DNA of 36,250 nt from an uncultured Desulfobacterales bacterium. Its GTDB lineage: Bacteria; Desulfobacterota; Desulfobacteria; Desulfobacterales; JAUVVS01. The notes beneath the pieces are model-generated. The model saw nothing but the letters and a program-made list of their open reading frames with translations. It ran no database searches and had not been told where the DNA came from. Of the stretch, positions 9,022 to 28,714 are shown one piece after another (position 1 is the stretch's first letter; the number at the start of each line of letters is the position of its first letter). Both the position numbers and the translations under genes were made by a program. The stretch spans positions 1 through 36,250 of the forward strand of contig CAZQOH010000001.1 of the NCBI GenBank assembly GCA_964594355.1. The letters are read 5' to 3'.

Positions 9022-11382
9022 TCAAAAAGCCTCATACTCCGTCCTGGCTATTATCTCTTCCTGATGATCAATGTCCAAATCTACAAAATAGTCACTATAC
9101 CCTGCGACGCGAACAAGCAAATCACGATACTCCTCAGGAGCCTCCTGGGCTTTTCGGAGAGTAGAAGTATCGACAACATTAAATTGAATATGATGGCCGT
9201 TAAGTCTAAAATAAGCACGCATGAGATGCGCTAATTTTTCTATACCTTCTTTCCCTTCAAGAACGCTGGGTAAAAACCTCTGATTCAGAAGCGTACCACC
9301 CGATTTTACATGATCCATCTTCCCAAGAGATTTTATTACGGCTGTAGGGCCATTACGGTCAGCACCGTGAGATGGAGAAGTACCGTCAGATATAGGCATG
9401 CCTGCAAACCTGCCGTTAGCAGAAGCTCCCAGAACCTGTCCAAAATAGATATGGCAGGTGGTAGAAAGCATATTCAAGTGATATTGACTTCCCTTTGTAT
9501 TCGGTTTACCGTCAATAGCTTCAAATAAGGAGGCATATACTCTCTGCATGATAGAATCCGCATAATCATCATCATTACCATAAAACGGAGTCTTATTAAA
9601 AAGACGAAGACGGAGTGCTTCTTTGTCCTTAAAGTTTTTGTCCAGAGCATCCAGTAAATACTCCATGGTAATATTCTTATCTTCAAATACATGTTTCTTT
9701 ATAGCTGAAAGACTATCTGTAATTGTACCAATTCCACAGCACTGTATGTAATTCGTATTATACCGCGGGCCGGCATTATAATAATCTTTACCATTTTTAA
9801 TACAATCGCTAATAACAACGGAAAGGAAAGGAGCAGGCATATATGTCGCAAACATCCTCTCAATATAATTGTTTACCTTTATTTTAAGGTCAACAAAATA
9901 ATGGAGCTGTATGGAAAAGGCTTCATATAGGTCATCAAAACTCTTAAACTCCCTTGGATCCCCGGTCTCAGGCCCAATCTTTTTGTTCGTCACTGAATCA
10001 ACGCCGTTTGTAAGCGCAATTTCAAGGATTTTAGGAATATTAAAGTAGCCGGTCAGAATGTAGGCTTCCTTCCCAAAACTTCCGGTTTCGATACACCCGC
10101 TACAACCGCCCTCACGGGCATCTTCCAGGGTCTTTCCAACCCGAACCTGTTCCATAACAACCTCATCGGCATTAAAAACCGAAGGGTATCCATATCCCTT
10201 ACGGATCACACGGATAGCGGCTTTTAAAAAACGATCCGGCGTCTTATGACTGATCTGTATGTTACTTCCCGGTTGAAGAAGATGCATTTCATCAATAACT
10301 TCCAATATGATATAAGAGATTTCATTAACACCATCTGAACCATCACGTTTCATACCACCGAGGTTAATATTCGTAAAATCGTTATAAGTACCGCTTTCTC
10401 GAGCAGTAACACCCACTTTTGGAGGAGCGGGTTGGTTATTAACCTTTACCCAAAAACATTCAATAAGCTCTTTGGCCTTCTCCCGATCCATTGTTCCATC
10501 GGCCAGACCTTTTTCATAGAAGGGATAAAGATGGTGATCCATATGACCCGGGTTCATGGCATCCCATCCATTCAGCTCAGTGATGGTGCCCAGGTGAACA
10601 AACCAATACATTTGGATCGCTTCCCAGAGGTCGCGGGGTGCACGGGCAGGAACCCGGTGACAATTTGATGCAATTCTCTCAAGTTCAGATTTTCTCTGCT
10701 CATCAGTTTCTTTCTCAGCCATTTTTTCTGCCAAATCTGCATGACGTTCGGCAAAGATGATGGCAGCGTCACAGGAGATATCCATACCCTTTAATTCTTC
10801 AGCTTTAGCCGAAGCCTCCGGATCATTAAGATAATCAAGCTTTGCCAGACTTTCAGCTATTTCCACCTTGAAATCAAGCATACCTTTTTTGTAAAGAATA
10901 TTGTCAAGCGTTGTATGACCCGGTGCACGCTGCTCCATAAATTCAGTAAACATACCAGCCTTATATGCGGCCATCCATTCCCCAGGAGCAATACTGAATA
11001 GTCTATCCCGCATGGTCCTATTACGCCAGTATGGAATAACTTTATCTTTATAGATTTCAATGACCTCATTCGAAACCGTATATCTTGTCATATCTCTTGT
11101 GTTTAAGATTTGAAAATCTTTAACCGTATGACAGGTTAATTCCGGAAATGTTGGAACGGCTTTGGGAAAAGGACCGCGCTCTCCAACGATAAGTTCATCT
11201 TCACCAATAAAAATCGTCTTTTTTTCGCAAAGATTTTTAAAATTCAACGCCCTAAGAACAGGAAAAGAATATTTACCATAATTTTCCTTATAAAACTCAG
11301 TTACAAGCAAGGCACGTTCTGCGGAAATACTCGGCTCGATTTCAAAGCTTGCCTTTCGTAGCCTTGCGACTCTTTTGTTCAT
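9022..11382 (-). CDS. hypD: Glycyl radical enzyme of the dehydratase/eliminase class, probably trans-4-hydroxy-L-proline dehydratase
   Basis: 786-aa ORF with AGGAGG upstream of the ATG. It carries the glycyl-radical motif LVRVAGYSDYF (Gly761) and the thiyl loop GGCSGCIETG (Cys430, Glu432). His156, Asp274, Ser330, Phe336, Tyr446 and Thr641 lie at a constant -4 offset from the C. difficile HypD contact residues as I recall them. The activase gene ends 5 nt upstream. Confidence 0.72.
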   Translation of the reverse strand: MNKRVARLRKASFEIEPSISAERALLVTEFYKENYGKYSFPVLRALNFKNLCEKKTIFIGEDELIVGERGPFPKAVPTFPELTCHTVKDFQILNTRDMTRYTVSNEVIEIYKDKVIPYWRNRTMRDRLFSIAPGEWMAAYKAGMFTEFMEQRAPGHTTLDNILYKKGMLDFKVEIAESLAKLDYLNDPEASAKAEELKGMDISCDAAIIFAERHADLAEKMAEKETDEQRKSELERIASNCHRVPARAPRDLWEAIQMYWFVHLGTITELNGWDAMNPGHMDHHLYPFYEKGLADGTMDREKAKELIECFWVKVNNQPAPPKVGVTARESGTYNDFTNINLGGMKRDGSDGVNEISYIILEVIDEMHLLQPGSNIQISHKTPDRFLKAAIRVIRKGYGYPSVFNADEVVMEQVRVGKTLEDAREGGCSGCIETGSFGKEAYILTGYFNIPKILEIALTNGVDSVTNKKIGPETGDPREFKSFDDLYEAFSIQLHYFVDLKIKVNNYIERMFATYMPAPFLSVVISDCIKNGKDYYNAGPRYNTNYIQCCGIGTITDSLSAIKKHVFEDKNITMEYLLDALDKNFKDKEALRLRLFNKTPFYGNDDDYADSIMQRVYASLFEAIDGKPNTKGSQYHLNMLSTTCHIYFGQVLGASANGRFAGMPISDGTSPSHGADRNGPTAVIKSLGKMDHVKSGGTLLNQRFLPSVLEGKEGIEKLAHLMRAYFRLNGHHIQFNVVDTSTLRKAQEAPEEYRDLLVRVAGYSDYFVDLDIDHQEEIIARTEYEAF

Positions 11383-11387
11383 TGTTG

Positions 11388-12293
11388 TTAGCCTCCTATT
11401 TTAACTTTCAATCCATATTTTCTCAGTCGTTTCTTAATTGACTTCAGATCATTCTCGGAAGAGGGCGAAACATTTTTCAAAAGATATTTTACACCAATTT
11501 TTTTATACTTTGCTATAGCCGAATCATGATATTTTAATAAATTTACATTGGAGACACCAGGAAGAGAGGATATAAAAGACCCTGTACGATCAATGTTTTC
11601 ATTATCATTGTTAAATCCGGGGATAACAGGAATACGTACTTTTATATTTGCACCACGCCCGGCGAGTAGTTCAAGGTTGCTGAGAATCTGTTCATTTGAA
11701 ACGCCTGTATACTTTTTATGTTTTTCCGAGTCCATGTGTTTCACATCATAGATGAAAAGTTCCGTGTGTTCTGCAACGCTCATGAGTATCTTTGCATCTG
11801 CATAACCTGAAGTATCAACTGTCCTGTGGATTTCAAGCTTTCCGCTGGCATCGAGAAGCTCCAGAAGAAAACCGGATTGCATCAAAGGCTCACCACCGGA
11901 AAAAGTGACACCACCATTTGACTCATCATAAAAGATAATATCCCTTTCAATTTTCCGGACAACATCATCAACAGTACTAGTCTTTCCTATAAACTCAACA
12001 GCTTCCGAAGGGCAGGCTTGTGCACAAGTTCTGCACTTGATACATTTGGATTGATCCGTAACCACCCCCCTTGACGAAAGAGAATTCGCTTTCTGAGGAC
12101 AGACCTTGATACATTCTTCGCATCCGATACATCGTTCTTTTATATAAAATCGCTGGGCCGACATTGTCAGACCCTCGGGATTGTGACACCACCAACATGA
12201 AAGCGGACAACCTTTAAAAAAAACAGTCGTCCTGATACCCGGCCCGTCATGGATGGCATATTTTTTTATATTAAAAATTACACCTTTCTCCAT
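11388..12293 (-). CDS. Glycyl-radical enzyme activating protein (radical SAM)
   Basis: 301-aa ORF. It has the N-terminal CX3CX2C cluster (CPLSCWWCHNPE) plus two ferredoxin-type motifs (CIGCEECIKVCP, CIKCRTCAQACP). This is typical for activases of non-PFL glycyl radical enzymes. Confidence 0.9.
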   Translation of the reverse strand: MEKGVIFNIKKYAIHDGPGIRTTVFFKGCPLSCWWCHNPEGLTMSAQRFYIKERCIGCEECIKVCPQKANSLSSRGVVTDQSKCIKCRTCAQACPSEAVEFIGKTSTVDDVVRKIERDIIFYDESNGGVTFSGGEPLMQSGFLLELLDASGKLEIHRTVDTSGYADAKILMSVAEHTELFIYDVKHMDSEKHKKYTGVSNEQILSNLELLAGRGANIKVRIPVIPGFNNDNENIDRTGSFISSLPGVSNVNLLKYHDSAIAKYKKIGVKYLLKNVSPSSENDLKSIKKRLRKYGLKVKIGG

Positions 12294-12301
12294 CTGGTCC
12301 T

Positions 12302-12432
12302 AACCCGCATTTCTCATGAAGAATTTATCCTATGATTAATAACACAAAAATTAACTATAATATCATTTAAATACATTGATTATAAATTTTCATATAGATG
12401 AACATATAAATTCTTCATGAAAAAAGCGGGTT
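12302..12432. promoter_or_regulatory. 27-bp inverted repeat pair (2 mismatches) bracketing 77 bp of AT-rich DNA just upstream of the activase/GRE operon
   Basis: aacccgcatttctcatgaagaatttat (12302-12328) compares with the reverse complement of 12406-12432, aacccgcttttttcatgaagaatttat. The proximal arm ends 8 nt before the activase ATG (12293). Confidence 0.8.
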
Positions 12433-12489
12433 AAAGACTCCTTGTTTACAGATGGTTTCTATCTGAAAATGCTCTAAAGAGCAAGAATA

Positions 12490-12800
12490 TTGTGGGGGAA
12501 ATGCGGAGTGAGGTGGACAGGATGGTCGTAGTGCAACGGACTTGTGCGCCTCAGGCGTAGATCCCGCATGAGCGGAGTTGGAGCGAAGCGGCCTCCGGCT
12601 CGGAGAGAAATAACAAATTACAAGCACCAAATTACAAATAAATCCCAAGTTACAATATCCAAAACTCAAATAAGATCCAAAACTAATTGTTTGGAATTTT
12701 GAATTTTAGTCATTGTGATTTGTTTGGTATTTGTCTTTTGGTTATTGTGATTTATTTGGTGTTTGTTATTTTTCTTTTGTTTTTTGGTATAAAAACGTAA
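12490..12800. repeat. Long imperfect palindromic element (GC-rich flank + AT-rich heptamer-like arms)
   Basis: The arms pair, for example aaataacaaa (12608-12617) with tttgttattt (12762-12771). The core gaattttagtcattgtgatttgtttgg (12701-12727) matches 15749-15776 at about 22 of 27 positions. The flank block cctccggctcggagagaaataac resembles ttccggcgagaaatac at 15578-15593. Confidence 0.65.
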
Positions 12801-12828
12801 AAAATCAGATATAAGGCACTAGCAGGTT

Positions 12829-13797
12829 CTACCAAATGTATTTTTTAAATCCTGCTAAACCTTTTGGTGCATAAAGCATAATGCTTATTAAAAGCGCCCC
12901 GAAAAGTACCAGTCGCCAGGCAGCCAGCTCTCTGAAATATTCCTGAAACCCTATAAGAAGAAAAGCCGCAACAATAGAACCCCAAAGTGTTCCTCTTCCT
13001 CCAACATAGGCCATTGTCAAAATCTCTACAGTTCTTGGAACCCCGAATTCGGTTGCATCAGGAGTAAGGATACCAATGTAGTGGGCGTAAAAGGCTCCTA
13101 TAACACCTGTAAAAAAACAGGCTGTAGTAAAATTGATAAGTTTGTATTTAGTGGCACTTAGGCCTAACGTCTCAGTGGCAAGTTGATCTTCTCGTATGGC
13201 CTTGAAGGAGAGTCCTATTTTTGAGTTGACCATAAGAAAGGCGATTGTAAAGCTAATAATAACGAGAAGTAAAAGCAGATAATAGTAAGGTAGAAGCTCC
13301 GCTCGAGAATAGTTTAATCCAAAAATGTCGGGTATGGGTTTGACGGCCAGACCCAACATTCCTCGTGTATATCCCGGGGTGTTTGATATGGTCAGTCGCA
13401 GCACCTCGGCTACAAACCAGGTAGCAAGACCCACAAAGATCCCCCTCAGTCTGAGAGTAACCAGTCCCGTTAAAAATCCCAAAATCCCTGAAGCTATACC
13501 ACCGATAAGTAAACCGTACCAGGGATTTATCTCATAGTGAAATGCCGCAAGGGCAGATCCATAGGCACCGGCACATATAAATCCGGAAAAACCGAAATTA
13601 TAAAGTCCTGCGTAGCCGATCTGAAGATCATACATTACTCCCCATATGCCAAACATCAGGGCAGAAATAAAGACCGTGGTAATAAAGCGATTCTCCCGCC
13701 ATATTAGAGGGACCAGGATGAGAAAAGCCAAAACAAGGGATAGTTTAATATAGCGAGAAGCGTTCATTCCCTTTTGGGGACTTCCTAAGAAACTCAT
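12829..13797 (-). CDS. Branched-chain-amino-acid-type ABC transporter permease (LivM-like)
   Basis: Polytopic hydrophobic ORF. The long track version (to 13884) overlaps the upstream permease by 91 nt. The ATG at 13797 forms an ATGA start/stop overlap with the LivH-like stop, so I prefer it. Confidence 0.85.
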   Translation of the reverse strand: MSFLGSPQKGMNASRYIKLSLVLAFLILVPLIWRENRFITTVFISALMFGIWGVMYDLQIGYAGLYNFGFSGFICAGAYGSALAAFHYEINPWYGLLIGGIASGILGFLTGLVTLRLRGIFVGLATWFVAEVLRLTISNTPGYTRGMLGLAVKPIPDIFGLNYSRAELLPYYYLLLLLVIISFTIAFLMVNSKIGLSFKAIREDQLATETLGLSATKYKLINFTTACFFTGVIGAFYAHYIGILTPDATEFGVPRTVEILTMAYVGGRGTLWGSIVAAFLLIGFQEYFRELAAWRLVLFGALLISIMLYAPKGLAGFKKYIW

Positions 13798-14681
13798 GGT
13801 CGTTCTCCTGCCGATGCAAAGAGTCCCTCTGGTTTGAATACGAGAACCGCGATAACAATAGAAAAAACAATTACGTTCTGCCAACCTCCCGCGAGATAGA
13901 ACATGGCAAAAGCCTCAAGAAGCCCAACAAGGATACCGGCCGCAAAGGCCCCTTTTATGTTTCCAAGGCCGCCAAGGATGACGACCACAAAACTCTTCAG
14001 AACCGGTCCCATTCCGGCATTGGGATTGGCAGGGTAAAGAGTGATAAGAAGGGCTCCTGAGATTCCTGCCAGAGCCGCCCCAATCCCAAAGGCGATGGAG
14101 TACATTAGACCGGAATCAATACCAAGGGTCTGGGCTGCCTCCGAATGCTGAGATGTTGCCCGAATGGCCTTGCCTAAACTGGTATATTTAATAAAAGACC
14201 AGAGTAGTCCCACTGTCAGAGTGGCCAGACCCAGAATCGTCAGGTGATCATAAATAAAGACAACCTCCTTTATGACCAGCCGGCCGGCCACAAGATTGGG
14301 AATTCCTCTCTGAATGGCGCCGAAGATTATCAGGGCCAGATTTTGAAACATCACCATAAGGCCAATGGTCAGCACAAAGGAATCCATGAGCCATTCTCGG
14401 CCGGCTTTTTTGCGTAGCGGGGAAATTAGGCCCTTCTCAAGAATGAAGCCTACGATCAAAAGACCTGCACCAGAGGCGATAATGCCCAAAGGAAAAGGAA
14501 TACCCAGCATTGCGGTAATGAAATACATGATGTAGCAGCCGATCATAAAAAGCTCTCCATGGGCAAAGTTGACAATCCCCATAATACCAAAGATCAGCGA
14601 CAGACCAACTCCCATGAGCGCATACATCGCTCCCCTCACCAGACCGAGTACAAAAAGCTGCGTAAAAATACTGAAATCCAT
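13794..14681 (-). CDS. Branched-chain-amino-acid-type ABC transporter permease (LivH-like)
   Basis: 295-aa polytopic membrane ORF with the LivH-like N-terminus LVLGLVRGAMYALMGVGLSLIFG. Confidence 0.88.
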   Translation of the reverse strand: MDFSIFTQLFVLGLVRGAMYALMGVGLSLIFGIMGIVNFAHGELFMIGCYIMYFITAMLGIPFPLGIIASGAGLLIVGFILEKGLISPLRKKAGREWLMDSFVLTIGLMVMFQNLALIIFGAIQRGIPNLVAGRLVIKEVVFIYDHLTILGLATLTVGLLWSFIKYTSLGKAIRATSQHSEAAQTLGIDSGLMYSIAFGIGAALAGISGALLITLYPANPNAGMGPVLKSFVVVILGGLGNIKGAFAAGILVGLLEAFAMFYLAGGWQNVIVFSIVIAVLVFKPEGLFASAGERP

Positions 14682-14774
14682 ATTTTATATCCCTTTGGAA
14701 TTGACTATTAGATTGATAATTGTCTATCAAATATCTAAGAAAAACCTGATAAGATATAAATAAAATAATTAATT

Positions 14775-14816
14775 ATTCAATCTTCAATATTCAATCTTCA
14801 ATATTCAATGTTAAAT
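14775..14816. repeat. Heptanucleotide tract (ATTCAAT/CTTCAAT) x6
   Basis: attcaat cttcaat attcaat cttcaat attcaat gttaaat. It overlaps the LivF-like stop codon (14811-14813) and lies in the gap before the LivH-like start. Confidence 0.9.
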
Positions 14817-15521
14817 CCATTCCTTAATAACATCTTCGATCGTATCAACAAACTTTTCTTTGGGACCGTGGTGACTGTTCTGTCCCAACCGAAGTACATA
14901 TATATAATCAGCCACATCCACGCACTTATGGACCTTCTGATCTACAATAAGAATGGTGAATCCTTTTTCCTTAAGCTTGACGATCTCTTCATAAACAGAG
15001 TCAACCAGCTTGGGCATCAACCCAACAGAGGGCTCGTCGATCAAGATGGTTCGGGGCTTTGTCATGGTGAGACGGGCAATCTCAAGTGTTCGCTGCTCGC
15101 CACCTGACAGGACCCCGGCCAATGCCTTTCTCTTCTCTTTTAAAACAGGATATCGATCAAAAACATCTTCCAAGGCAACCTGAAGAGCTTCCCGGTCACG
15201 CTTTATTATCCACCCTCCAAGCTCAAGATTTTCCTCAACAGTCATTGTCGGAAAGACGCTGTGCCCCTGAATGAGATGGGCAATGCCCTGACCCAGCATT
15301 TTATCAGGCTTAAGCCCCTTGATAGATTCACCATGGTGAAAAATGTCCCCTTCGCTGGGATATAGGTACCCGTATATAGTCTTGAGAAGTGTTGATTTTC
15401 CCGCTCCATTAGGACCGATGATGCCTGTGAGGGATCCTTCCTCCGCGACAACACTCACATCATTTAGAATGGAAACTTCTTTTACATAGCCTGAAGTGAT
15501 ATTTTTAATCTCAAGAGTCAT
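14811..15521 (-). CDS. ABC transporter ATP-binding protein (LivF-like)
   Basis: 236 aa. Walker A GPNGAGKST, signature LSGGEQ and Walker B ILIDEPS. Confidence 0.88.
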   Translation of the reverse strand: MTLEIKNITSGYVKEVSILNDVSVVAEEGSLTGIIGPNGAGKSTLLKTIYGYLYPSEGDIFHHGESIKGLKPDKMLGQGIAHLIQGHSVFPTMTVEENLELGGWIIKRDREALQVALEDVFDRYPVLKEKRKALAGVLSGGEQRTLEIARLTMTKPRTILIDEPSVGLMPKLVDSVYEEIVKLKEKGFTILIVDQKVHKCVDVADYIYVLRLGQNSHHGPKEKFVDTIEDVIKEWI

Positions 15522-15892
15522 AATTAGTTTGATTTAAACCCACCACTTCCAGTGGTGGACCCGAAAAGGTTCTACCGTTCCGGCGAGAAATACGGTGCAA
15601 AGCACGAAATACGAATTTCGAAATTCGAAACAAATCCGAAATTGTAATGTTCAAATGACAAAAACAAAGTCAAAAATAGGCCTAAAGAGTCTCAATATAG
15701 CTAGCTTTTTGGTATGTTGGACATAGCCCAATTTTTGTTTAATATTTCGAATTTTGGTCATTCGAATTTGTTTCGGATTTCGTGCTTCGAGTTTCGAATT
15801 TAGGTTCCAAAGCGCTTTTTCCCCCTTCAAGGGGGCTATCTGAGGCCTCCTGCTCTACGAGAGGAGCACTCACTTCTATCGCCGTTCATTTA
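15522..15892. repeat. Long imperfect palindromic element filling the whole LivG-like/LivF-like intercistronic gap
   Basis: aagcacgaaat (15600-15610) pairs with atttcgtgctt (15777-15787). Both arms carry heptamer-like units built on tcgaa, ccgaa and related cores. The terminal hairpins are ccaccact-tcc-agtggtgg (15540-15558) and ccccc-ttcaa-ggggg (15821-15835). Confidence 0.72.
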
Positions 15893-16606
15893 TCAACGGC
15901 CCAGATAGGCGTCAATGACTGATGGGTCATGACGAACCTTATCAGATTCCCCTTCGGCAATAGTCTTTCCGGCCGAAAGGACAGTCAGGTTCTTACACAG
16001 TTTCATGACCGATGGAATGTCGTGGCTGATAAGAAGGAAAGTCTTTGACTGTGTTTTATTCAGCTCAAAAGTGATCTCTATCAACCGATCAATCAAGGCA
16101 GGGTTGACACCGGCAAAAGGTTCATCCATAAGAACTACCTCGGGGTCCGCCATCATGGTCCGCATAAATTCAAGAAGCTTCTTCTGTCCGCCGGAGATTT
16201 CAACACCTAATTGATCCCGCAAATGGGTGAGATCTGCCATCTCTAAAAGCTCCAGCGCCTTTTTCTCTCCTTCCCTTTTTGAAATGTGTCTGGGAATAAT
16301 AGGAACCATCATGTTGTCCATGAGGGTCATTTCATTAAAGACTCGGGGAACCTGAAAGGTTCGGCCAATACCCATATGAGCAATTTTATTTGGCTTGCTG
16401 TTAGTAATTTCACGGCCCTTGAACAAAATCGTCCCCTTCTCAGCAGTGTAAACGCTGTTGATTACATTGAACATGGTAGTTTTGCCTGCCCCGTTAGGCC
16501 CGATGACGCCGTGAATCTTTCCCTCTTCAACACTCAAAGAGACGCCATCCAAAGCTGGAATGCCACCAAAGTGTTTAAAAACATCATGAACTTCCAATAA
16601 TGCCAT
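15893..16606 (-). CDS. ABC transporter ATP-binding protein (LivG-like)
   Basis: 237 aa. Walker A GPNGAGKTT, signature ISGGQKK and Walker B VLMDEPFAG. Confidence 0.88.
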   Translation of the reverse strand: MALLEVHDVFKHFGGIPALDGVSLSVEEGKIHGVIGPNGAGKTTMFNVINSVYTAEKGTILFKGREITNSKPNKIAHMGIGRTFQVPRVFNEMTLMDNMMVPIIPRHISKREGEKKALELLEMADLTHLRDQLGVEISGGQKKLLEFMRTMMADPEVVLMDEPFAGVNPALIDRLIEITFELNKTQSKTFLLISHDIPSVMKLCKNLTVLSAGKTIAEGESDKVRHDPSVIDAYLGR

Positions 16607-18117: not shown

Positions 18118-18264
18118 CTTGAGACCTTTGCAAAACGCCCCCTTTTGCTCAATTTCTGCGTTAGGCTCAAATTTTAATCCTCAAAATACTCAATGTATTC
18201 CTGTGGTTAAAATTTTCGCCTGCCTTGAACTTGAACAAAATTGAGCATTTTTCAAAGGTCTCAA
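18118..18264. repeat. Three-tier imperfect palindrome in the gap between the racemase-family gene and the ABC binding-protein gene
   Basis: ttgagacctttg (18119-18130) pairs with caaaggtctcaa (18253-18264), and tgctcaattt (18146-18155) with aaattgagca (18238-18247). ggctcaaattttaa (18164-18177) pairs with ttaaaattttcgcc (18207-18220), with 2 mismatches. Confidence 0.7.
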
Positions 18265-18376
18265 CTTTCCAATAAAAAAAGTAATTATTTAGCCATGCCA
18301 CTAAAACACGTATGAAAAGTGAAGTCAAGACACAAATAAAATATATCAATCTTACTCTTTCAAATCTCTTATTTTT

Positions 18377-19387
18377 CTACAAAACAAACCCATTTGCAAA
18401 AGGGTCTTCGGGATCTATAACAAATTTATGAAATCCCGTCAGAAATGGGCGACAACTGACTTTAGGAACGATTGCGGGAATATCACCCACCTTGGTTTCA
18501 GATAAGATCTCGCCTTTGAAAACAGAGCGTATGGAACTTTCGTGACGAAATTGCTGGCCAACGGCGAGTTTTCCTTTTCTGTTAAGAACAGCCATTCTGG
18601 CACAGGTTCCACTGCCACAGGGAGATCGATCAGCCTGGCCTAAGCCGAATATCACAATGTTTCGCGCATCTGCATGGGGTCCTGAGGGTGGAGCGGTGAT
18701 TATACAGAGGTCAATTGTACGTATATGCTCCTTTGTTTTGTCCTGTACCGGTATCTGTTTGTTAGCAGCATTAAGTACAGCCATTCCCTTCTTTATCAAT
18801 TCATTTGTATATTCAGAGTCAATACTTTCGATGCCAAGTTGATCAGAATTCACAATTACAAAAAAGTTACCTCCGTAGCCTACATCCACAATAATTTTAC
18901 CATGCTCCGGTACTTCTATTTCCTTATCTAAAACCCAGGCATAGGATGTCACATCTACAAAACTGACTTCTGTTACCCTGTCGTTTTCATCGGTTAATAC
19001 CGTTCCCTCAATTATACCTGCCGGCACCTCAAGTCGAACGGTTGTTTTTCCCGGTTTAGATTCAACCCTGCCCGTTTCAACCATCATCGCACATATACCG
19101 AGTGTGCCATGACCACACATATTCAAATAACCTTTACCATCCATATATATAACGGCAGCATCGGCAGAAGGATCAATGGGAGGAAGGAGTATGGCCCCAA
19201 ACATATCTCGGTGACCACGAGGCTCGTGCATAAGTGACATTCGAAGCCAATCCATATGATTTTTAAGATAATCCATGCGCTCAGCCATGGTGTCTCCTTT
19301 GACTTTTCCGAACCCGTCAACAATTATCCGTGTAGGTTCTCCGGCCGTATGCGAATCGATTACAGATATGATATTCTTTAAATTCAT
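18377..19387 (-). CDS. Proline racemase family enzyme (4-hydroxyproline 2-epimerase or proline racemase type, Cys/Cys)
   Basis: 336 aa. The N-terminal VIDSHTAGEPTRII is the family hallmark. Both catalytic positions are Cys (NMCGHGT, Cys91; DRSPCGSGT, Cys257), which indicates an epimerase/racemase rather than the Cys/Thr dehydratase subtype. Confidence 0.85.
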   Translation of the reverse strand: MNLKNIISVIDSHTAGEPTRIIVDGFGKVKGDTMAERMDYLKNHMDWLRMSLMHEPRGHRDMFGAILLPPIDPSADAAVIYMDGKGYLNMCGHGTLGICAMMVETGRVESKPGKTTVRLEVPAGIIEGTVLTDENDRVTEVSFVDVTSYAWVLDKEIEVPEHGKIIVDVGYGGNFFVIVNSDQLGIESIDSEYTNELIKKGMAVLNAANKQIPVQDKTKEHIRTIDLCIITAPPSGPHADARNIVIFGLGQADRSPCGSGTCARMAVLNRKGKLAVGQQFRHESSIRSVFKGEILSETKVGDIPAIVPKVSCRPFLTGFHKFVIDPEDPFANGFVL

Positions 19388-19400
19388 TAAATCCTCCCTT

Positions 19401-20573
19401 TTAAACCAGTCCGCTTTCGCTTAGTGGTTTTTTTTCCAAAATCCGTTCGGGCCGAAAGACCGACAAATCCAGAGTTGATTGTCTCCCTAATATCAGTTCC
19501 GACATGTAGCGACCCACTGCCGGCGCCTGCTGAAGCCCATGACCGGAAAAGCCGTTGGCCAGAAAGAACCCTTTAAGTTCCGGCCACTCACCAAGTATTG
19601 CGTTCCCGTCGAGATTATTCACTGCGTATAACCCTGCCCAGCCTCGAACCAGTTTGAGCGTATCAAAGGCAGGGACGAACTCGGCTAATTCCGGCCAGAG
19701 AGTCTCCATGAATCTCTTATCATCCCAGGTAAAGTCGAATCCAACCGGATCCTCCGCCATTGACTTGCCCAACAGGATCAAGCCGCCTGTTTCAGTTCTG
19801 AAATAAAGTCCAGAGGGTAGAATGGTCAGGGGTAACGGTCCTTCGGGTTTAACTGCTGTTTTGAGCGTGAAAACCTGACGTTTGACAGGATCAACCGGTA
19901 TCTTTACTCCAGCCGTCTGCGCCACGTTGGCTGCCCACGCGCCGGTACAATTAACCACAAATTTGGACTTCAGACTTCCGTCTGAAGCCAGCTTGACCCC
20001 CGATGTCCTTCCATGATCAGCTATAATCTCAACGACCTCGTCTTTAATGTATTTCGCCCCTAATGATCCGGCTTTTTTCTTATATCCCATTAAAACGGCA
20101 TAGGCATCAAAATGACCGTCTTGAGACCCAAAGGAGCCACCTGCCAGACTGCCGGGTTCATAAAGTGGATAATGTTCCTTGATTTTTTCCGGTGACCACC
20201 ACTCTACCTGACAACCCAGGCTTTTCTGTAAGTCCAGAGCTTCTTCGGCCGCCTTACGGGCATCTTCTTCCACTAGAAAAAGATTGCCCTCACGGCGATA
20301 GTAGATTTTCGGTTTGTTATCATCGATTGCCATCTCGTCCTCAAAACGCTCTAAAACGTCAAATGCGTATTGTGAGACCTGAATGTTCTCCTTGAGGCTG
20401 AACTGGATACGCGCATTTACCATGGACAGGGTGGTTGAGGCTCTTTCATAGGTGGGGTCTCGTTCAACAACCGCTACTTTGATATTTGCATCAGCGCTCA
20501 TGAGGTAATAAGCTGTGGAGCTGCCCATGACACCGCCGCCGACAATGATGATATCGTAGATGTTATTGTTCAT
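19401..20573 (-). CDS. FAD-dependent oxidoreductase (DAO / sarcosine-oxidase-beta-like family)
   Basis: 390 aa. It has the N-terminal FAD fold YDIIIVGGGVMGSSTAYYL and a length and layout typical of the DAO family. Its stop lies 13 nt before the racemase-family start. Confidence 0.8.
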   Translation of the reverse strand: MNNNIYDIIIVGGGVMGSSTAYYLMSADANIKVAVVERDPTYERASTTLSMVNARIQFSLKENIQVSQYAFDVLERFEDEMAIDDNKPKIYYRREGNLFLVEEDARKAAEEALDLQKSLGCQVEWWSPEKIKEHYPLYEPGSLAGGSFGSQDGHFDAYAVLMGYKKKAGSLGAKYIKDEVVEIIADHGRTSGVKLASDGSLKSKFVVNCTGAWAANVAQTAGVKIPVDPVKRQVFTLKTAVKPEGPLPLTILPSGLYFRTETGGLILLGKSMAEDPVGFDFTWDDKRFMETLWPELAEFVPAFDTLKLVRGWAGLYAVNNLDGNAILGEWPELKGFFLANGFSGHGLQQAPAVGRYMSELILGRQSTLDLSVFRPERILEKKPLSESGLV

Positions 20574-20594: not shown

Positions 20595-20777
20595 TTAATT
20601 AATCTTAACCCTGACAAGCCGGAAGGGTTAATCGTTATTTGTTATTCTTTATTATAGCGGTTTTCAAAAATATGTTCCGATTGATTCGCGTCTAAGCTTC
20701 CGGACTCATCGTGGGTTTATTTCTTTTAAACAATTAACCAATAACAAATAACGAATAACTCCCAATTGGTTTTTTAC
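20595..20777. repeat. Palindromic intergenic element with terminal hairpins and heptamer arms
   Basis: Left hairpin: ttaaccct (20595-20602) with agggttaa (20614-20621). Arm cgttatttgttatt (20623-20636) pairs perfectly with aataacaaataacg (20730-20743). Right hairpin: tcccaat (20750-20756) with attggga (20771-20777). Confidence 0.75.
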
Positions 20778-20789: not shown

Positions 20790-21941
20790 TTATTTAAATT
20801 GTTCCATTTTAGAAAAATCACGATACAAATCAAAATGTTTTAAGATTTCTATATCCTCCTTTGATAGTTCATTTGAAATGATTCTGCAAATTAATTTCCC
20901 TAAACCGGGTCCCAACATGAATCCCTGACCACACATACCTACTGCATTTATGAAATTAGGAGTTTCTTTAAGAGCCCCAACTATTGGGAATCCATCTGGA
21001 GTCCTCTGATATTGCCCGCGCCAGGTTCGGCGAACTTTAATATTGGCCAGTTTTGGGAAAAGTTTTACCATTCGTCCGGCAACTTGTGGTAAAAAAAAGG
21101 AAGTGGAATCACAATCCGTTCCATATATAGACGGTTTGGGAGTTATACAGAAAATCACCTGCCCTTCATTATTTTGATAAAAATAAAAATTCGCTGAATC
21201 TTTAGTTGGCCTCATATCGACAATCATTGGTCCGAAAAATCTTTTAACAGGTTCGGTGATACCGCCTTCATGACTGTCAGGAACCACAGGTAAATCCAGG
21301 TTTACCATTTTTCCGATTTCTTTTGCATTATTTCCTGAAGCATTTACAACAAAATTACAATGATAATTCCCTTTGTTTGTAACTACTTTTATGGGATTAT
21401 TTTTTTTAACTTTTATATCAACAACTTTTTCTTTGAATTTATATTTTCCGCCAAACTCCAGACTTTTGAAATAGAAGGCACTGTTTGCTAAAAGTGGCGA
21501 CGCACTTCCATCATCTGGTGAATAGGTGGAGCCTTGTAATCCATTTTCGTTTATACCCGGAACCAATTCTTTATATTCTTCCGCAGAAATCCAATCTATA
21601 TTCAATCCAAATAATTTTTGGATCTTTAACAAAGCTTTAAGTTTTTTTTCATCTTTTTTTGTATAAGCCGGAAAACTGTATCCGTTTTTTATCCATCCAA
21701 TATGGTCGCCATACTTTTCTTTCCAGGTGGAGAAAATCTCTATACTTAGCTGACAGACTTTGATTTTCCCTTTATTGGAATGAGTGGCACGAATACCTCC
21801 GATAGCTCTTTTATTCTGTCCTTGTCCTGGTGAAGACAGCGCATCAATAACCAAGACTTTAATCCTCTTCTCTGCCAAAGTCAAAGCAATTGGAACACCA
21901 ATAGAACCCGCGCCGATAACGATTACTTCGTATTTATTCAT
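20790..21941 (-). CDS. FAD-dependent oxidoreductase, beta-subunit-like (sarcosine oxidase beta / opine oxidase B / D-hydroxyproline dehydrogenase beta type)
   Basis: 383 aa. It has the FAD fold YEVIVIGAGSIGVPIALTL and the GGIRATHS block. It is partnered with the large Fe-S flavoprotein gene upstream. Confidence 0.8.
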   Translation of the reverse strand: MNKYEVIVIGAGSIGVPIALTLAEKRIKVLVIDALSSPGQGQNKRAIGGIRATHSNKGKIKVCQLSIEIFSTWKEKYGDHIGWIKNGYSFPAYTKKDEKKLKALLKIQKLFGLNIDWISAEEYKELVPGINENGLQGSTYSPDDGSASPLLANSAFYFKSLEFGGKYKFKEKVVDIKVKKNNPIKVVTNKGNYHCNFVVNASGNNAKEIGKMVNLDLPVVPDSHEGGITEPVKRFFGPMIVDMRPTKDSANFYFYQNNEGQVIFCITPKPSIYGTDCDSTSFFLPQVAGRMVKLFPKLANIKVRRTWRGQYQRTPDGFPIVGALKETPNFINAVGMCGQGFMLGPGLGKLICRIISNELSKEDIEILKHFDLYRDFSKMEQFK

Positions 21942-21960
21942 TCTTATTCCAGGGTTGCAT

Positions 21961-22072
21961 CATCCGTCATCTGTCTTCTGCCATCTGTCATCCGTCATCC
22001 GTCATCCGTCATCTGTCATCCGTCATCCGTCCTCTGTCTTCTGTCTTCCGTCATCCGTCATCTGTCATCCGT
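21961..22072. repeat. Tandem heptanucleotide array, 16 head-to-tail units of CATCYGT and variants (ACRGATG on the coding strand)
   Basis: Read directly: catccgt catctgt cttctgc catctgt catccgt x3 catctgt catccgt x2 cctctgt cttctgt cttccgt catccgt catctgt catccgt. It fills most of the 139-bp gap between the alpha-like stop (22081) and the beta-like start (21941). Confidence 0.95.
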
Positions 22073-22080
22073 CACCAATC

Positions 22081-24162
22081 CTAACCTCCATCTGAAAATT
22101 TTCCCAAAGGAACCTCAACAAAAAGGGGACGTCGTAAATTTAATTCAACCTCTTCCAAAGGAATATCTTCTTCACGGAATATTTGCTTCACTAAGTTTTC
22201 ACATGTTTTGTAACCACAAGGACCCATCCCGGCGCGAGTGATTGCCTTAATCTGGTTCATATTTATAATCCCTTTGCGAACAAGAGAACGTATTTCATCG
22301 GCATTAACTCTTTCACAGAGGCAAACCATTTCTTCTTCATCAATATTATCTGGGAAACGAAGATCTTCAAGCGGCTTTGATATGTCTTCATCTTGAATTC
22401 GAAAAGAAACAACTTTTTGGGCAATCTCTTTTGGAACTTTAATTCTTACTAATTGGGTTTTATTTGTAAATTTAGTCTTGGTAACACGAACAACCTCAAA
22501 ATTGCCAAGAGGATTGGTATCATTATCAACACATTCGACATTGTCACCTTTCTCAATTTTGATGTTGGAAACTTCATAAGGCAAAGTGACCAAAGGATTC
22601 TGTGCATCTTTTCGGAAATCAACAAGAGTAATTGCCAGCCCGGGACAAATCGCCACACATTTTGCACAACCATTACACCCGTTTCCCTCAAAAACAGGAA
22701 GACCTCGTATGGGATCACCTTTAATCTTTATGGAATTTGTTTTGCAAACAGTGATACACGGGTTACAGGGAATTTCCTGTCTACAGTGAATAATGGGCGC
22801 CACCCCTTCACTTAATTTTGAAATTCTCGTTTTATAAACTTTGCCGGCTGGAGATTTCAATGTTTCCGCTTTTTCATACCAACTTTTCGGAATTTCGTTG
22901 ACATCCGCTCTAAGCTCTTTGGCAATTTTTAGTCCGACAATTTTCCCATTAAACATTGCTGAAGAAGCTTCTGCAATTTCCATGGCGTCCCCGGCGGAAT
23001 AGACATTTAATCCTGCTGTCTTTGCTTCTTCTGCAAATTCACTGACAGATTCCAGACCGACTGCAATGAGAATTGTGTCACATTCAAAAGTTTTTTCAGT
23101 ACCATCGATTATTTTAAAATTGCTATCGATCTGTGCAATCGTAATTGAAGTAACAGATTTCTCTCCATTTGCCGAACTTATGGTGTGGGATGTATAAATC
23201 GGCACCCCAAGTCTTTTTAATTTATCTTCATGAACCTTGTATCCACCGCATTTCGGCAATGCTTCCACAAGTCCCACAACATTTATACCGGCCTGCAAAG
23301 CGTGATAACCGGCAATAAGACCTACATTCCCGCCGCCAATTATAAACAGCTTTTCGGTGGGACGAATCATATCTCTATTTACCAGGGTTTGAAATGCGCC
23401 TGCTCCATAAATTCCTGCCAGTCTATTTCCTTTAAAACGAAGGAATTTTTCCCTTGCACCGGTGGCGTTTAAAACAATTTTAGGTAAAACTATTTTATAA
23501 ACACCGTCTTTAAGGATACCCACTGCTTTATCTTTAAAAACATACAAAGCAGTGCTGTTTGTCCAGATTTCTATGTTTTCATTTTCCAAAACCTTCTTGG
23601 TAAGCATTTTGCCGATATCTATTCCACGCATTCCGGCAAAAGAATCTTCCACCGATCCGAAGAACTTATGAGTTTGCAAAACCAATTTGCCGCCCAACTC
23701 GCTTTTATCATCAACCAGCAGGGCTTTTATGCTGTTTTCTCCCAATTGAATTGCCGCGGAAAGACCGGCCGGACCTCCGCCAATAATTAAAACATCCGTT
23801 TTTAGATGCTCAATATCGCTGATTTTCGGTTTTTTATTAACTTCCGGAAGCTTTGGAAGACCTTCTACACTTTCTATAATCATATTTTCTGCAACTTCGG
23901 TCATACAGGCCTTTACAGGAATACCGTTTGCAATTACGGCACACTTTGCACACTGACCGTTGGCACAAAAGATACCTTGAGCGCTTCCATCTTTATGATG
24001 GTGCCCGAAAATTTTAACCCCGTTTGCAAAAAGTGCGGAAGAAATGACCTCCCCCTTTTTAGCTTTTATAGGTGTTTTATTCCAATAACATGTAATATCC
24101 TCCAATTCCTTAATGGGCAATATTGGGTGTTTTACTAACCTATAGTTACTCACCTTTTTCAC
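22081..24162 (-). CDS. Multi-domain Fe-S flavoprotein: 2Fe-2S-like N-domain + FAD/NAD(P) pyridine-nucleotide-disulfide-type oxidoreductase + ferredoxin-like 4Fe-4S region + BFD-like 2Fe-2S C-domain (alpha-subunit-like)
   Basis: 693 aa. It has an N-terminal Cys cluster (FCANGQCAKCAV...KAC) and two GxGxxG folds (LIIGGGPAGLSAA, FIIGGGNVGLIAG). It also has CRQEIPCNPCITVC plus CNGCAKCVAICP, and a C-terminal CLCERV...GPCGYKTC. The start is uncertain (GTG 24162, GTG 24153 or TTG 24120); the two GTG candidates overlap the MttB-family stop at 24146 and the TTG lies 25 nt downstream of it. Confidence 0.8.
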   Translation of the reverse strand: MKKVSNYRLVKHPILPIKELEDITCYWNKTPIKAKKGEVISSALFANGVKIFGHHHKDGSAQGIFCANGQCAKCAVIANGIPVKACMTEVAENMIIESVEGLPKLPEVNKKPKISDIEHLKTDVLIIGGGPAGLSAAIQLGENSIKALLVDDKSELGGKLVLQTHKFFGSVEDSFAGMRGIDIGKMLTKKVLENENIEIWTNSTALYVFKDKAVGILKDGVYKIVLPKIVLNATGAREKFLRFKGNRLAGIYGAGAFQTLVNRDMIRPTEKLFIIGGGNVGLIAGYHALQAGINVVGLVEALPKCGGYKVHEDKLKRLGVPIYTSHTISSANGEKSVTSITIAQIDSNFKIIDGTEKTFECDTILIAVGLESVSEFAEEAKTAGLNVYSAGDAMEIAEASSAMFNGKIVGLKIAKELRADVNEIPKSWYEKAETLKSPAGKVYKTRISKLSEGVAPIIHCRQEIPCNPCITVCKTNSIKIKGDPIRGLPVFEGNGCNGCAKCVAICPGLAITLVDFRKDAQNPLVTLPYEVSNIKIEKGDNVECVDNDTNPLGNFEVVRVTKTKFTNKTQLVRIKVPKEIAQKVVSFRIQDEDISKPLEDLRFPDNIDEEEMVCLCERVNADEIRSLVRKGIINMNQIKAITRAGMGPCGYKTCENLVKQIFREEDIPLEEVELNLRRPLFVEVPLGKFSDGG

Positions 24163-25618
24163 TTTCGGCTAATTCCTTTTCACCCTTTTTTCTTAGTCGC
24201 TTAAGTTCCCCAAGGACTGAATCTGATAATGGAGGAACCTCATGTGTTTCCAGTATCGTCCGGATTTTTTCCTGAATTCGATCAACCATTGTCTTTTTGC
24301 CTTCATTAGCCCAGAGATCAAATGTTTGCCTGGCCATTAAGGTTGGAATCCAATGCTCGTTTCTAAAATGCTGATATGTGTGTTCCTCCTGGAGAAAGTT
24401 ACCACCTGGACCGACTTTTTCTATGATTTCACGAGCTAATGTTTCTGAATTTACTTTTACTCCCTGGAGAAATCGTTTGACCATACCTATCACTTCATCG
24501 CCCATAACCAGCATTTCCGCGGAGCTGATCATTCCACTATCGAGATATCCCACATCATGGATAATGTTGACTCCGCCCAGAGCCTGAGTAAGGCAGGAAA
24601 AAGCACTCTCTATACCGGCCTGCGGATCCAAAGTCTTTGCATCGGTACAACCTGCCGTTCCCCAAGTGGGAAGGCCATAAAGCCGCGCGACATCACCATA
24701 GGCGGCTGTTAAAAGACTCAGCTCCGGAGCGCCAAAAGTCATATTTCCAGTCGCCATGTCCATAACAGTTGGGACACCTCCCAGAACATAAGGCGTTCCA
24801 GGTCTTTTAAGCTGGGACAGTATCAATCCCATGATGCTTTCCGTATTCGTAAGGACAAGGGTTCCGGCCATGGTAACAGGACTTGTCGAGCCTGCCTGAT
24901 TTGCCGGACCTCCGATCACCGGCATACCCAGTCCCGCCGTATAAAGGACTTTTTCTGCGACATCCTGGGGATAGACGAGAGGCGTAATAGGTTCCGGGTA
25001 AGCTACAATAAAGGGACGTTCTCTTAGTCGATCCATGCCTCCAGCCACTGCCGCCGCCATATCATATACAATCTCATGGGCCCTGGAGGAAAAGGTGAGG
25101 AAAATGATAGGCTTCCGGGTATTGGTCACAGCCGCCACAAATTCATGTAGTTCCGCTGCCTGAGCCGGTGTTACGTCCTGGCAAGACCCCATGGGCATTA
25201 TCCAGTCAATGTTAGGAAGGGCATCGGCGATCAGGGCGCCTCTGGCGATATCTTCGACCCTAGTCGGGTGGATCTCATAAGTCAGGGCATCCCGCGTATT
25301 TGGGCTGGCCGGATTTGTTCCAAAATAGGTTTTCCGTCCCTCCACTTCCAATGCACGATTACCTTCCCGATCGTACAGAGTAAACCCTTTTGGGGTCAGG
25401 CGAATACATTCCTCCACAATATACTGGGGCGTTTTTACAATATCCCCGTCTACATGGGCACCGGCTTTTTTCAGGAGATTAATGGCCTCTTCACATATAA
25501 CTTTATAGCCAACCTTCTCAAGAACTTCCAAGGAAGCCCGGTGGATTTCATAGACCTGATCATGAGAAAGAATGGAAAACTGTGGTGATCTTTGCGATAT
25601 AAATGATGACTGTATCAT
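24146..25618 (-). CDS. MttB-superfamily (trimethylamine methyltransferase family) protein, non-pyrrolysine type
   Basis: 490-aa uninterrupted ORF with no in-frame TAG. Its length and N-terminal pattern (ILSHDQVYEIHRASLEVLEKVGYKV) are typical of MttB-family quaternary-amine:corrinoid methyltransferases. AGGAGGG precedes the ATG. Confidence 0.85.
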   Translation of the reverse strand: MIQSSFISQRSPQFSILSHDQVYEIHRASLEVLEKVGYKVICEEAINLLKKAGAHVDGDIVKTPQYIVEECIRLTPKGFTLYDREGNRALEVEGRKTYFGTNPASPNTRDALTYEIHPTRVEDIARGALIADALPNIDWIMPMGSCQDVTPAQAAELHEFVAAVTNTRKPIIFLTFSSRAHEIVYDMAAAVAGGMDRLRERPFIVAYPEPITPLVYPQDVAEKVLYTAGLGMPVIGGPANQAGSTSPVTMAGTLVLTNTESIMGLILSQLKRPGTPYVLGGVPTVMDMATGNMTFGAPELSLLTAAYGDVARLYGLPTWGTAGCTDAKTLDPQAGIESAFSCLTQALGGVNIIHDVGYLDSGMISSAEMLVMGDEVIGMVKRFLQGVKVNSETLAREIIEKVGPGGNFLQEEHTYQHFRNEHWIPTLMARQTFDLWANEGKKTMVDRIQEKIRTILETHEVPPLSDSVLGELKRLRKKGEKELAESEKGE

Positions 25619-28712: not shown

Positions 28713-28714
28713 CC

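Follow-up and report, generated by a model that had tools for sequence, protein, structure and literature searches.

The stretch of DNA analysed here, hereafter the window, comprises positions 1-36,250 of contig CAZQOH010000001.1 (assembly GCA_964594355.1) from an uncultured Desulfobacterales bacterium. On its minus strand, at 9022-25618, it carries 12 consecutive co-directional open reading frames (ORFs), which in transcription order encode an MttB-superfamily protein, an Fe-S flavoprotein (alpha), two DAO-family flavoproteins (beta1 or DAO1, and beta2 or DAO2), a proline-racemase-family enzyme, the binding protein, two ATPases and two permeases of an ABC importer, a glycyl-radical activating enzyme (AE, the activase) and the glycyl radical enzyme (GRE) HypD, a trans-4-hydroxy-L-proline dehydratase. 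We found that this locus is built of at least three separable modules and is not one conserved pathway. The reading we prefer, at somewhat less than even confidence, is that it is a lineage-specific modular island for the anaerobic use of proline-type imino acids, converging on pyrroline-5-carboxylate (P5C). The component families are all known; the 12-gene combination is unusual and was found only in this lineage. A first interpretation, made from the letters alone and referred to here as the sequence-only reading, had taken the genes as one co-evolved pathway leading from a (hydroxy)proline betaine to the N-methyl imino acid, then to hydroxyproline (Hyp) or proline, and through the racemase and HypD to P5C, which we now consider unlikely.

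The 12-gene arrangement is not an assembly chimera or artefact, because the same order is present in independent JGI and ENA assemblies: 12 contigs, drawn from several JGI and ENA samples, encode an identical racemase protein and have the gene order and both flank junctions unchanged. The genomes closest to the window are metagenome-assembled genomes (MAGs) that carry the labels Deltaproteobacteria and Desulfobacterales. In the ENA assembly L002 (4591-4603), the MttB gene seems to be split, at ten Ns that mark a scaffold join; this run of N rules out a pseudogene, a frameshift or a recoded stop. Families were assigned to the window ORFs using Pfam and NCBIfam profiles with curated cut-offs, which upheld every family call of the sequence-only reading. 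The 12 genes also lie where that reading had placed them, in the window as in the independent assemblies, except that for the second permease (322 aa) the most likely start is 13797 and not 13884.

Judged by its sequence, the GRE (786 aa, 9022-11382, minus strand) is a bona fide HypD, as had been proposed. It scores 1258 bits against the equivalog model NF043068, above the cut-off of 1100, and aligns without gaps over ~780 residues to Clostridioides difficile HypD (6VXC; 1045 bits, about two-thirds identical). The HypD residues to which structure and mutagenesis have assigned Hyp binding or acid-base chemistry are conserved, with 12 of 12 catalytic and Hyp-binding positions kept (R156, H160, D278, K326, S334, D339, F340, C434, E436, Y450, T645 and G765); in the window protein, the glycyl radical residue is G761 within RVAGYS and the Cys loop is C430-I-E432. 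The activase (301 aa, 11388-12293, minus strand) matches TIGR02494 at 352 bits (cut-off 174), and its best equivalog model is the HypD activase NF043069, at 385 bits and thus under the cut-off of 425; its gene ends 5 nt upstream of HypD. The pair resembles C. difficile HypD and its activating enzyme (6VXC/6VXE) in the glycyl-radical motif, the CXE Cys loop, the Hyp-binding and acid-base residues and the adjacent activase. It differs in that no proC, a common neighbour of HypD in Clostridia, is adjacent, and in that the cassette, in a deltaproteobacterial MAG, has an ABC importer on one side and argC on the other. HpyG and HpzG (8ID1, 8IOF) are likewise GRE eliminases of hydroxyproline derivatives in anaerobes, dehydratases of N-methyl-cis-4-hydroxy-L/D-proline (Jiang et al. 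2024, cited in PMC13450708); the window GRE reaches only 398-453 bits against them, nearer as it is to HypD, and keeps the binding set for free Hyp. That such N-methyl-hydroxyproline GREs are known indicates that anaerobes attack methylated hydroxyprolines, which speaks for the co-evolved pathway.

The activase and HypD form a cassette that is an indel. In L008, a contig from a sister MAG whose racemase is 90% identical to that of the window, synteny extends over ten genes, MttB to the second permease, and argC-folD-M23 comes directly after them, with no activase, HypD or remnant of either between the permease and argC. In a further related contig, L007, the neighbours are 92-97% identical to their window counterparts, the activase just 79%. 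The 12 nearest relatives of the window HypD, which make up its subclade (L021-L032), have Nuo genes, an M24 peptidase or other ABC genes as neighbours, and their AE-HypD pairs are 77-83% identical to that of the window. The cassette is preceded by a 535-nt spacer (12294-12828) with a 28-nt inverted repeat (12301-12328/12406-12433, arms 93% complementary) that brackets an AT-rich, promoter-like stretch, and with low-complexity repeats at 12687-12790. Because the inverted repeat surrounds a promoter-like stretch, we propose a separate control region for HypD, and a HypD transcription unit of its own likely starts in the spacer. Just a 54-60-nt piece (12443-12502) of it recurs in the spacers of L008 and L007. 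Both the absence of HypD and activase from the otherwise syntenic L008 and the promoter-like region in the spacer argue against a single co-evolved pathway.

Modularity is not limited to the HypD cassette. Orthologues of the racemase, of MttB and of the alpha/beta1 pair each occur elsewhere without one another, and exact 8-residue racemase patterns, which detect close relatives only, found the block in just two further MAGs when searched across 185,579 species representatives. The check on neighbourhood conservation that the sequence-only reading had called for thus came out negative for the 12 genes as a set, as L008 is without HypD and activase and the parts occur separately; its own caveat, that the locus might be two or three independent units, is nearer the evidence than a single linear pathway. 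The intergenic gaps within the cluster measure 535, 371, 342, 216, 139, 129 and 90 nt, and there are three tight junctions of -17, -4 and 5-13 nt. GC content at third codon positions (GC3) is a mosaic that splits the cluster at single-gene resolution: DAO1 (0.29), alpha (0.32), AE (0.35), HypD (0.36) and racemase (0.37) are near the housekeeping flank (~0.35), with higher values for permease2 (0.39), MttB (0.44), the ATPases (0.46-0.50) and DAO2, permease1 and the binding protein (0.51-0.52).

A leader motif of octamer repeats (AACCACTYAAC / CCACTCAACTAYTTRAC) lies at 25636-25662 on the minus strand, 18 nt upstream of the MttB start. Further copies are found before argC (8870-8888, minus strand) and, as an inverted 31-nt copy of the argC leader, at 25767-25798 on the plus strand, abutting the stop of a PIN gene; the window thus has three matches, compared with 0.01 expected. 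The MttB and argC copies are placed just upstream of ribosome-binding sites. In L008, copies precede DAO1 and argC (7163-7195, 17520-17552), and in L007 one precedes the activase (7062-7077). The motif could be a shared regulatory or leader element, or a scar left by recombination as one insertion after another occurred upstream of argC. A PIN-domain (VapC-like) gene and a MazE/AbrB-type antitoxin gene form a pair (25799-26501) on the MttB strand, immediately upstream of MttB; since L008 has dapB at this position, the upstream boundary of the block is variable.

These features would also fit a recombination hot spot that had collected chance neighbours: one of many MttB paralogues, acting on unrelated methylated amines, would have landed upstream of a proline-dehydrogenase/racemase/transporter module, HypD would be a hydroxyproline cassette acquired separately, and MttB would have no metabolic tie to the other genes. 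The argC leader has copies at module heads, the boundary is formed by PIN/MazE in the window and by dapB in L008, and the GC3 of MttB (0.44) departs from that of the alpha gene it overlaps (0.32). We regard this explanation as improbable, since the start of alpha overlaps the stop of MttB by 17 nt, which implies translational coupling, and this junction is kept in L008 at 88-94% identity; in addition, MttBs with the same motif recur in HypD operons elsewhere (see below).

Alpha (693 aa, 22081-24162, minus strand) has a gamma-like N-terminus fused to it and matches Pfam Fer2_4, Pyr_redox_2, Fer2_BFD and, weakly, Fer4_21. Its domains are an N-terminal [2Fe-2S] domain, an FAD/NAD domain, a 4Fe-4S-like Cys motif and a C-terminal BFD-like [2Fe-2S] domain, with the gamma-type [2Fe-2S] motif C-x4-C-x2-C-x11-12-C at residues 66-86. 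The best PDB matches are the alpha subunits of sarcosine oxidase (2GAG_A) and of Pyrococcus horikoshii L-proline dehydrogenase (1Y56_A). Beta1 (383 aa, 20790-21941, minus strand, PF01266) best matches the beta subunit of the latter enzyme (1Y56_B, E=1e-51; runner-up 5e-20), as does beta2 (390 aa, 19401-20573, minus strand, PF01266; E=2e-38), which is encoded 13 nt upstream of the racemase gene and is ~22% identical to beta1. Both carry the FMN-type R-x-W motif at mutually aligned positions (R305-T-W in beta1, R310-G-W in beta2), a motif described for beta subunits of the hetero-oligomeric group of L-proline dehydrogenases (L-ProDH), D-hydroxyproline dehydrogenases (D-HypDH) and opine dehydrogenases. 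For both betas, 1Y56_B is far ahead of any other solved protein. The earlier family calls hold, and the subunits are of the sarcosine-oxidase/L-proline-dehydrogenase type of alpha and beta. The three flavoproteins look like one Fe-S alpha with two alternative betas, of L-proline-/opine-dehydrogenase type, and the one alpha probably serves both, a layout with precedents in archaeal L-proline dehydrogenase and in opine dehydrogenases. Alpha homologues at ~70% identity occur across phyla; in Cloacimonadota and Desulfobacteraceae, alpha and beta1 (~70% identical) form a stand-alone overlapping gene pair with no MttB or racemase nearby, and beta1 always adjoins alpha in other phyla. Two loci whose alpha homologues are of the Cloacimonadota type also have a DUF362 gene downstream of the alpha/DAO genes.

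The racemase (336 aa, 18377-19387, minus strand; PF05544, E=3e-114) belongs to the Cys/Cys proline-racemase family, as had been stated: both catalytic cysteines are present, in NMCGHG and DRSPCGSG. Its best NCBIfam model is the proline racemase NF010576, at 408 bits and short of the cut-off of 556, and it also stays under the cut-off of every model for Hyp epimerases and trans-3-hydroxy-L-proline (T3LHyp) dehydratases. The best PDB match is the proline racemase (ProR) of Acetoanaerobium sticklandii (7PB3), with which it shares Phe/Phe at discrimination sites 1 and 5. At these sites, Hyp epimerases (HypE) have small, Cys or Tyr residues and the Thermococcus litoralis enzyme TlProR has Trp. The role in Hyp stereochemistry that the co-evolved pathway assigns to this enzyme is not supported by a ProR signature. 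Racemase orthologues are found in unrelated contexts, at ~70% identity in Phycisphaerae and Kiritimatiellota and at 54% in Mesorhizobium.

The combination of a Cys/Cys ProR-family enzyme with alpha/beta dehydrogenases and transporters resembles the characterised proline/hydroxyproline cluster of the archaeon T. litoralis, which comprises TlProR, dye-linked alpha-beta and alpha-beta-gamma-delta L-ProDHs and transporters, and the fusion of a gamma-like N-terminus to alpha resembles P. horikoshii PDH1 (1Y56). The window differs from the T. litoralis cluster in being bacterial, in the extra ferredoxin-like Cys motifs of alpha and in the addition of MttB and HypD, and its racemase has Phe where the bifunctional TlProR has Trp at site 5.

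One alpha (with gamma) encoded together with two poorly related DAO betas, each carrying R-x-W, is also found in the Bradyrhizobium japonicum opine dehydrogenase OdhB1-C-A-B2 ('subunit exchange'), although in sequence the window flavoproteins are closer to L-ProDH and the pairing of DAO2 with alpha is a predicted one. The flavoproteins might accordingly be an OdhA/B1/B2-like opine or secondary-amine dehydrogenase that frees proline or another amino acid from an imported imino-diacid, to be processed by the racemase and HypD. ABC importers are typical of opine oxidase clusters, and an NAD-type Octopine_DH-family gene (33487-34596, minus strand) lies 8 kb from the cluster. Nevertheless, we think this very unlikely: the best matches are to L-ProDH beta and not to opine enzymes, the alpha/beta1 pair is kept at ~70% in amino-acid-fermenting phyla with neither transporter nor opine genes beside it, and between the cluster and the Octopine_DH gene lies an unrelated operon of opposite orientation. 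A second Octopine_DH-family gene (18608-19717 of locus L013) stands directly after an MttB paralogue, in a locus that also holds an enolase-superfamily racemase and three more MttBs; it has been counted in favour of the opine explanation. Octopine_DH genes near MttBs hint that opine-/betaine-like compounds are common substrates in these bacteria.

The same protein families (ProRac, DAO beta, alpha/gamma) also make up the classical Pseudomonas LhpA-G route, in which a Hyp 2-epimerase acts with a hetero-oligomeric D-hydroxyproline dehydrogenase. Such a cluster is present in Desulfovibrio sp. MES5 (L010, 2760-13576), with an MFS transporter, a DHDPS-family deaminase, a DAO beta, a Fer2_4 gamma, a Pyr_redox_2/BFD alpha, an aldehyde dehydrogenase, a ProRac-family epimerase and an amino-acid permease, and is a complete classical hydroxyproline cluster in a sulfate reducer. 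For the window, we rejected this route, whose probability we put close to nil: the DHDPS-family Pyr4H2C deaminase and the alpha-ketoglutarate semialdehyde (alpha-KGSA) dehydrogenase, both present in L010, are absent, the two racemases share just 39% identity, that of the window having the ProR signature, and the alpha subunits are only ~24% identical.

The importer genes (12829-16606, minus strand; ABC_tran, BCA_ABC_TP_C and BPD_transp_2) comprise ATPase1 (15893-16606, ABC_tran), ATPase2 (14811-15521, ABC_tran), permease1 (13794-14681, BPD_transp_2) and the 322-aa permease2 (12829-13797, BPD_transp_2), all on the minus strand. They are preceded by the gene for a Liv-type (cluster B) substrate-binding protein of 445 aa (16697-18034, minus strand; PF13458, Peripla_BP_6, and TIGR01409) with a twin-arginine signal (TAT_signal 28.5 bits, cut-off 16.7). 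As the binding protein is of the Liv type and not of the ProX/OpuAC type, the importer does not support the uptake of a (hydroxy)proline betaine that the sequence-only reading implied. In L008, the ABC genes are 69-73% identical to those of the window, compared with 85-94% for the enzymes and flanks.

The MttB-superfamily protein (490 aa, 24146-25618, minus strand) matches PF06253 over residues 5-475 (E=1e-99) and scores 437 bits against TIGR02369, under the cut-off of 525. Because its ORF is uninterrupted, without an internal stop or in-frame amber codon, it is a non-pyrrolysine (non-Pyl) member, as had been claimed. Among PDB entries, it scores 247 bits against the glycine betaine enzyme MtgB (~31% identity) and 239 bits against the true trimethylamine (TMA) enzyme MttB. 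It shares with MtgB, MtpB, MtcB, MtyB and MthB the Pfam family and fold class, the lack of pyrrolysine and a His equivalent to MtgB His348. However, this is the only one of the four glycine-betaine-binding residues of MtgB that is kept; R312 is replaced by Trp, F356 by Gly and Y97 by Pro, with Cys at the pyrrolysine position, and the locus is without the cognate corrinoid protein or MT2 of MtgB-type methyltransferases. Arg312 of MtgB binds the acid group of the substrate and is reported to be conserved in all five of these enzymes. The Trp at this site is found in 120 of the 120 closest homologues of the window protein (P0001-P0120), and the true TMA enzyme carries Tyr there. We describe this large subgroup by the motif [W/F]GTAGC[T/S]D; its members have Trp/Phe at the R312 site, Gly/Ala/Ser at the F356 site and a conserved Cys exactly where pyrrolysine stands in the TMA enzyme, and the literature searched yielded none that has been characterised. 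The lack of the Arg does not support the earlier reading as a betaine demethylase and counts against the co-evolved pathway. Together with the TMA-like pocket positions, it means that the MttB substrate may be unrelated to proline, as the chance-neighbour explanation would have it.

MttB orthologues at 60-78% identity also occur in quite different contexts, namely beside Opp-type ABC systems, other MttBs, URO-D and a B12-binding protein, or an enolase-superfamily racemase; the 78% orthologue (L011) has the URO-D and B12-binding genes nearby. The genomes are MttB-rich, with up to four MttBs within 21 kb at relatives' loci. Both points favour chance association. The 36 kb of the window hold no cognate corrinoid protein, MT2 or activase near MttB. 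This is not a strong objection to a methyltransferase function, because other loci with MttBs of the same motif are also without a corrinoid protein.

In one subclade of HypD outside the window's own, a functional link to MttB-family genes is real. Scanning metagenomes with HypD gave 80 loci at 67-83% identity; the full HypD residue set is invariant in all 80, and the activase is adjacent in 67. MttB genes were present in 6 of the 21 loci of one subclade (10 MttBs in 155 kb of flank), compared with none in the 604 kb of flanking DNA fetched for the remaining 59 loci. The six loci are partly arranged in overlapping operons and also hold a DAO flavoprotein or a ProRac-family gene. Two have the compact order GntR-MttB-AE-HypD-MttB-ferredoxin-aldehyde:ferredoxin oxidoreductase (AOR)-DAO, with MttB overlapping the activase (L041, 1-10047; L046, 957-11861). 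A third reads AE-HypD-SDR-MttB-AcnX-GntR (L034, 545-8755), AcnX being of the cis-3-hydroxyproline dehydratase family. L051 (343-6210) has a Cys/Cys ProRac-family gene with an epimerase-like signature followed by AE-HypD-x-MttB; L064 (8059-12257) has racemase-AE-HypD as at the start of L051, and its contig ends in HypD. L039 (143-10199) has GntR-MttB...HypD-ABC importer-AOR. The MttBs of these loci are 35-40% identical to the window MttB and to each other, all share [W/F]GTAGC[T/S]D, and none of the loci carries a corrinoid protein in the fetched DNA.

This result supports the general idea that some MttB paralogues feed HypD. The L041/L046 operon suggests two successive demethylations feeding HypD, followed by AOR oxidation of P5C or glutamate semialdehyde. 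As a candidate for the anaerobic breakdown of methylated hydroxyproline, it is cleaner than the window. The link between MttB and HypD that the sequence-only reading had drawn therefore holds for operons of another subclade and fails for that of the window.

For the island, we propose the following working model, which builds on family membership and gene order. It would have been assembled in a variable spot just upstream of argC from module A (24146-18377: MttB, alpha, beta1, beta2 and racemase), module B (18034-12829: the Liv-type ABC importer with its Tat-exported binding protein) and module C (12293-9022: the self-contained activase and HypD cassette with its own upstream control region). 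Imported L- or D-proline would be equilibrated by the racemase, and the alpha-beta complex would oxidise the ring C-N bond of proline to a pyrroline carboxylate, most likely P5C. HypD would convert trans-4-hydroxy-L-proline to the same product, which housekeeping enzymes encoded outside the window would turn into glutamate or proline. MttB probably removes an N-methyl group from a methylated imino acid, with corrinoid partners encoded elsewhere, and the second beta is a candidate for oxidising the remaining N-methyl imino acid. We argue for a shared role of MttB and alpha because their translational coupling is kept in L008 and HypD and MttB are linked elsewhere. Entry through a methylated proline is plausible; the MttB step is the weakest link of the model.

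The co-evolved pathway has in its favour that all required enzyme classes are present, that operons joining HypD, [W/F]GTAGC MttBs and DAO or ProRac genes exist in other lineages with GREs that have the full free-Hyp set, and that it mirrors the aerobic HpbBC/HpbA/PutA route. If a betaine is indeed the substrate, the window would parallel HpbD, HpbB-C (Rieske), HpbA (flavin) and PutA of Paracoccus denitrificans, which lead from the betaine over N-methylproline and proline to P5C/glutamate and include a racemase for the D-isomer; the Paracoccus route differs in being oxygen-dependent, in its unrelated demethylase families and in an enolase-superfamily racemase. In addition to the absence of the cassette from L008 and the ProR signature, this pathway is opposed by the single MttB of the window, compared with the two that flank HypD in L041. 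Its family calls and the HypD-MttB link elsewhere stand; the claim that the 12 genes are one conserved unit does not.

Several findings weigh against the modular island as well, or against its methylated entry step. Among the genes of the 36-kb window, there is no P5C dehydrogenase, proC, corrinoid protein, MT2 or RamA, in line with a caveat already given by the sequence-only reading. The substrates that we infer for alpha-beta1 and alpha-beta2 are based on similarity to archaeal enzymes at the 25-35% level. An N-demethylase of the sarcosine-oxidase kind would be expected to have a folate-binding domain; the Pfam assignment of alpha shows none, which does not support the N-demethylation previously assigned to the flavoprotein. 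The binding protein gives weak, partial matches only to solved amino-acid binders, with no informative liganded relative, and has diverged much faster than the enzymes (~70% compared with 88-94% identity in L008). Racemase orthologues at ~70% identity are not next to DAO genes, no MttB is found near the HypD genes of the window's own subclade (L021-L032), and the carboxylate-binding Arg is replaced by Trp throughout the window MttB clade, in which two pocket positions are nearer the true TMA enzyme. The large spacers and separate leader motifs argue for several transcripts, with co-expression unproven. Three of these features, in particular, argue against a simple betaine-to-proline series: MttB has no Arg at the R312 site, the binding protein is of the Liv type, and alpha is without a folate-binding domain.

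The earlier remark that the gaps are filled with repeats proved correct, as both tandem and inverted repeats were found in the spacers. The spacer between alpha and beta1 is filled by a tandem array of the heptamer TCATCCG (CGGATGA on the coding strand) at 21960-22074 (TRF period 7, 16.4 copies), with 15-16 copies in L001 and L002 and 8 in L004 and L005; two contigs break inside it. In other phyla, alpha and beta1 overlap without a spacer. The array may be a variable-number repeat affecting DAO1 expression. Further inverted repeats are located at 18116-18267 (41-nt arms, 80% complementary) and 20627-20759 (25-nt arms, 88% complementary), and a 14-bp GC-rich hairpin follows the binding-protein gene (16623-16653). 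Including the repeat upstream of the activase, these four elements could be attenuators, mRNA stabilisers or REP-like elements. An Rfam scan of the whole window at gathering thresholds revealed no riboswitch or other RNA family. Counts of sigma-70 and terminator consensus matches were not above those in shuffled sequences and give local hints only; the sigma-54 pattern had fewer matches than expected, none of them in the spacers.

ArgC and FolD are true equivalogs that still adjoin the block in L008, which has no HypD, and were ruled out as pathway members. On the plus strand, 27128-33349 encode an IclR regulator, a four-subunit 2-oxoacid:ferredoxin oxidoreductase, an ELFV-type amino-acid dehydrogenase, nearest to a ScyB-like Trp dehydrogenase yet below the cut-off, and a DUF362 protein. 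This operon was probably acquired horizontally, as its GC3 is 0.53-0.71 compared with ~0.35 for housekeeping genes; it was rejected as a downstream part of the pathway on account of its strand, its differing GC3 and its resemblance to an aromatic/branched-chain amino-acid module. In L008, a 594-aa protein with a C-terminal B12-binding domain (619-2403, minus strand) and an unassigned N-terminal stretch of 460 residues is encoded divergently upstream of dapB-MttB; it looks mutase-like and was discarded as a candidate for the corrinoid protein of a methyltransferase.

Orphan non-pyrrolysine MttB genes number in the dozens in marine Desulfobacterales and their relatives, and their substrates are a standing question. 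The more interesting lead from this locus is the [W/F]GTAGC MttB branch and its recurrent pairing with HypD. The literature searched yielded no paper that brings hydroxyproline, MttB and glycyl radical enzymes together. We speculate, with low confidence, that members of this branch may be corrinoid-dependent N-demethylases of N-methylated (hydroxy)proline and that, with HypD and the two-beta Fe-S flavoprotein dehydrogenase, they would form a fully anaerobic route from stachydrine/betonicine-type osmolytes over P5C to glutamate in marine sediment bacteria. Candidate substrates might include the tertiary amines N-methylproline and N-methylhydroxyproline. The window and the HypD-MttB operons thus offer a concrete, testable candidate substrate class for MttB, the N-methylated (hydroxy)proline osmolytes of plants, algae and invertebrates; if true, this would assign a substrate class to part of the orphan non-Pyl MttB paralogues and define a previously undescribed route. 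The locus also suggests that proline and hydroxyproline breakdown may converge on P5C in sulfate-reducer-type bacteria, with an oxygen-independent Fe-S flavoprotein replacing PutA. Even if the model is wrong, the locus still shows a roaming HypD cassette and stand-alone dehydrogenase pairs being stitched into lineage-specific catabolic islands.

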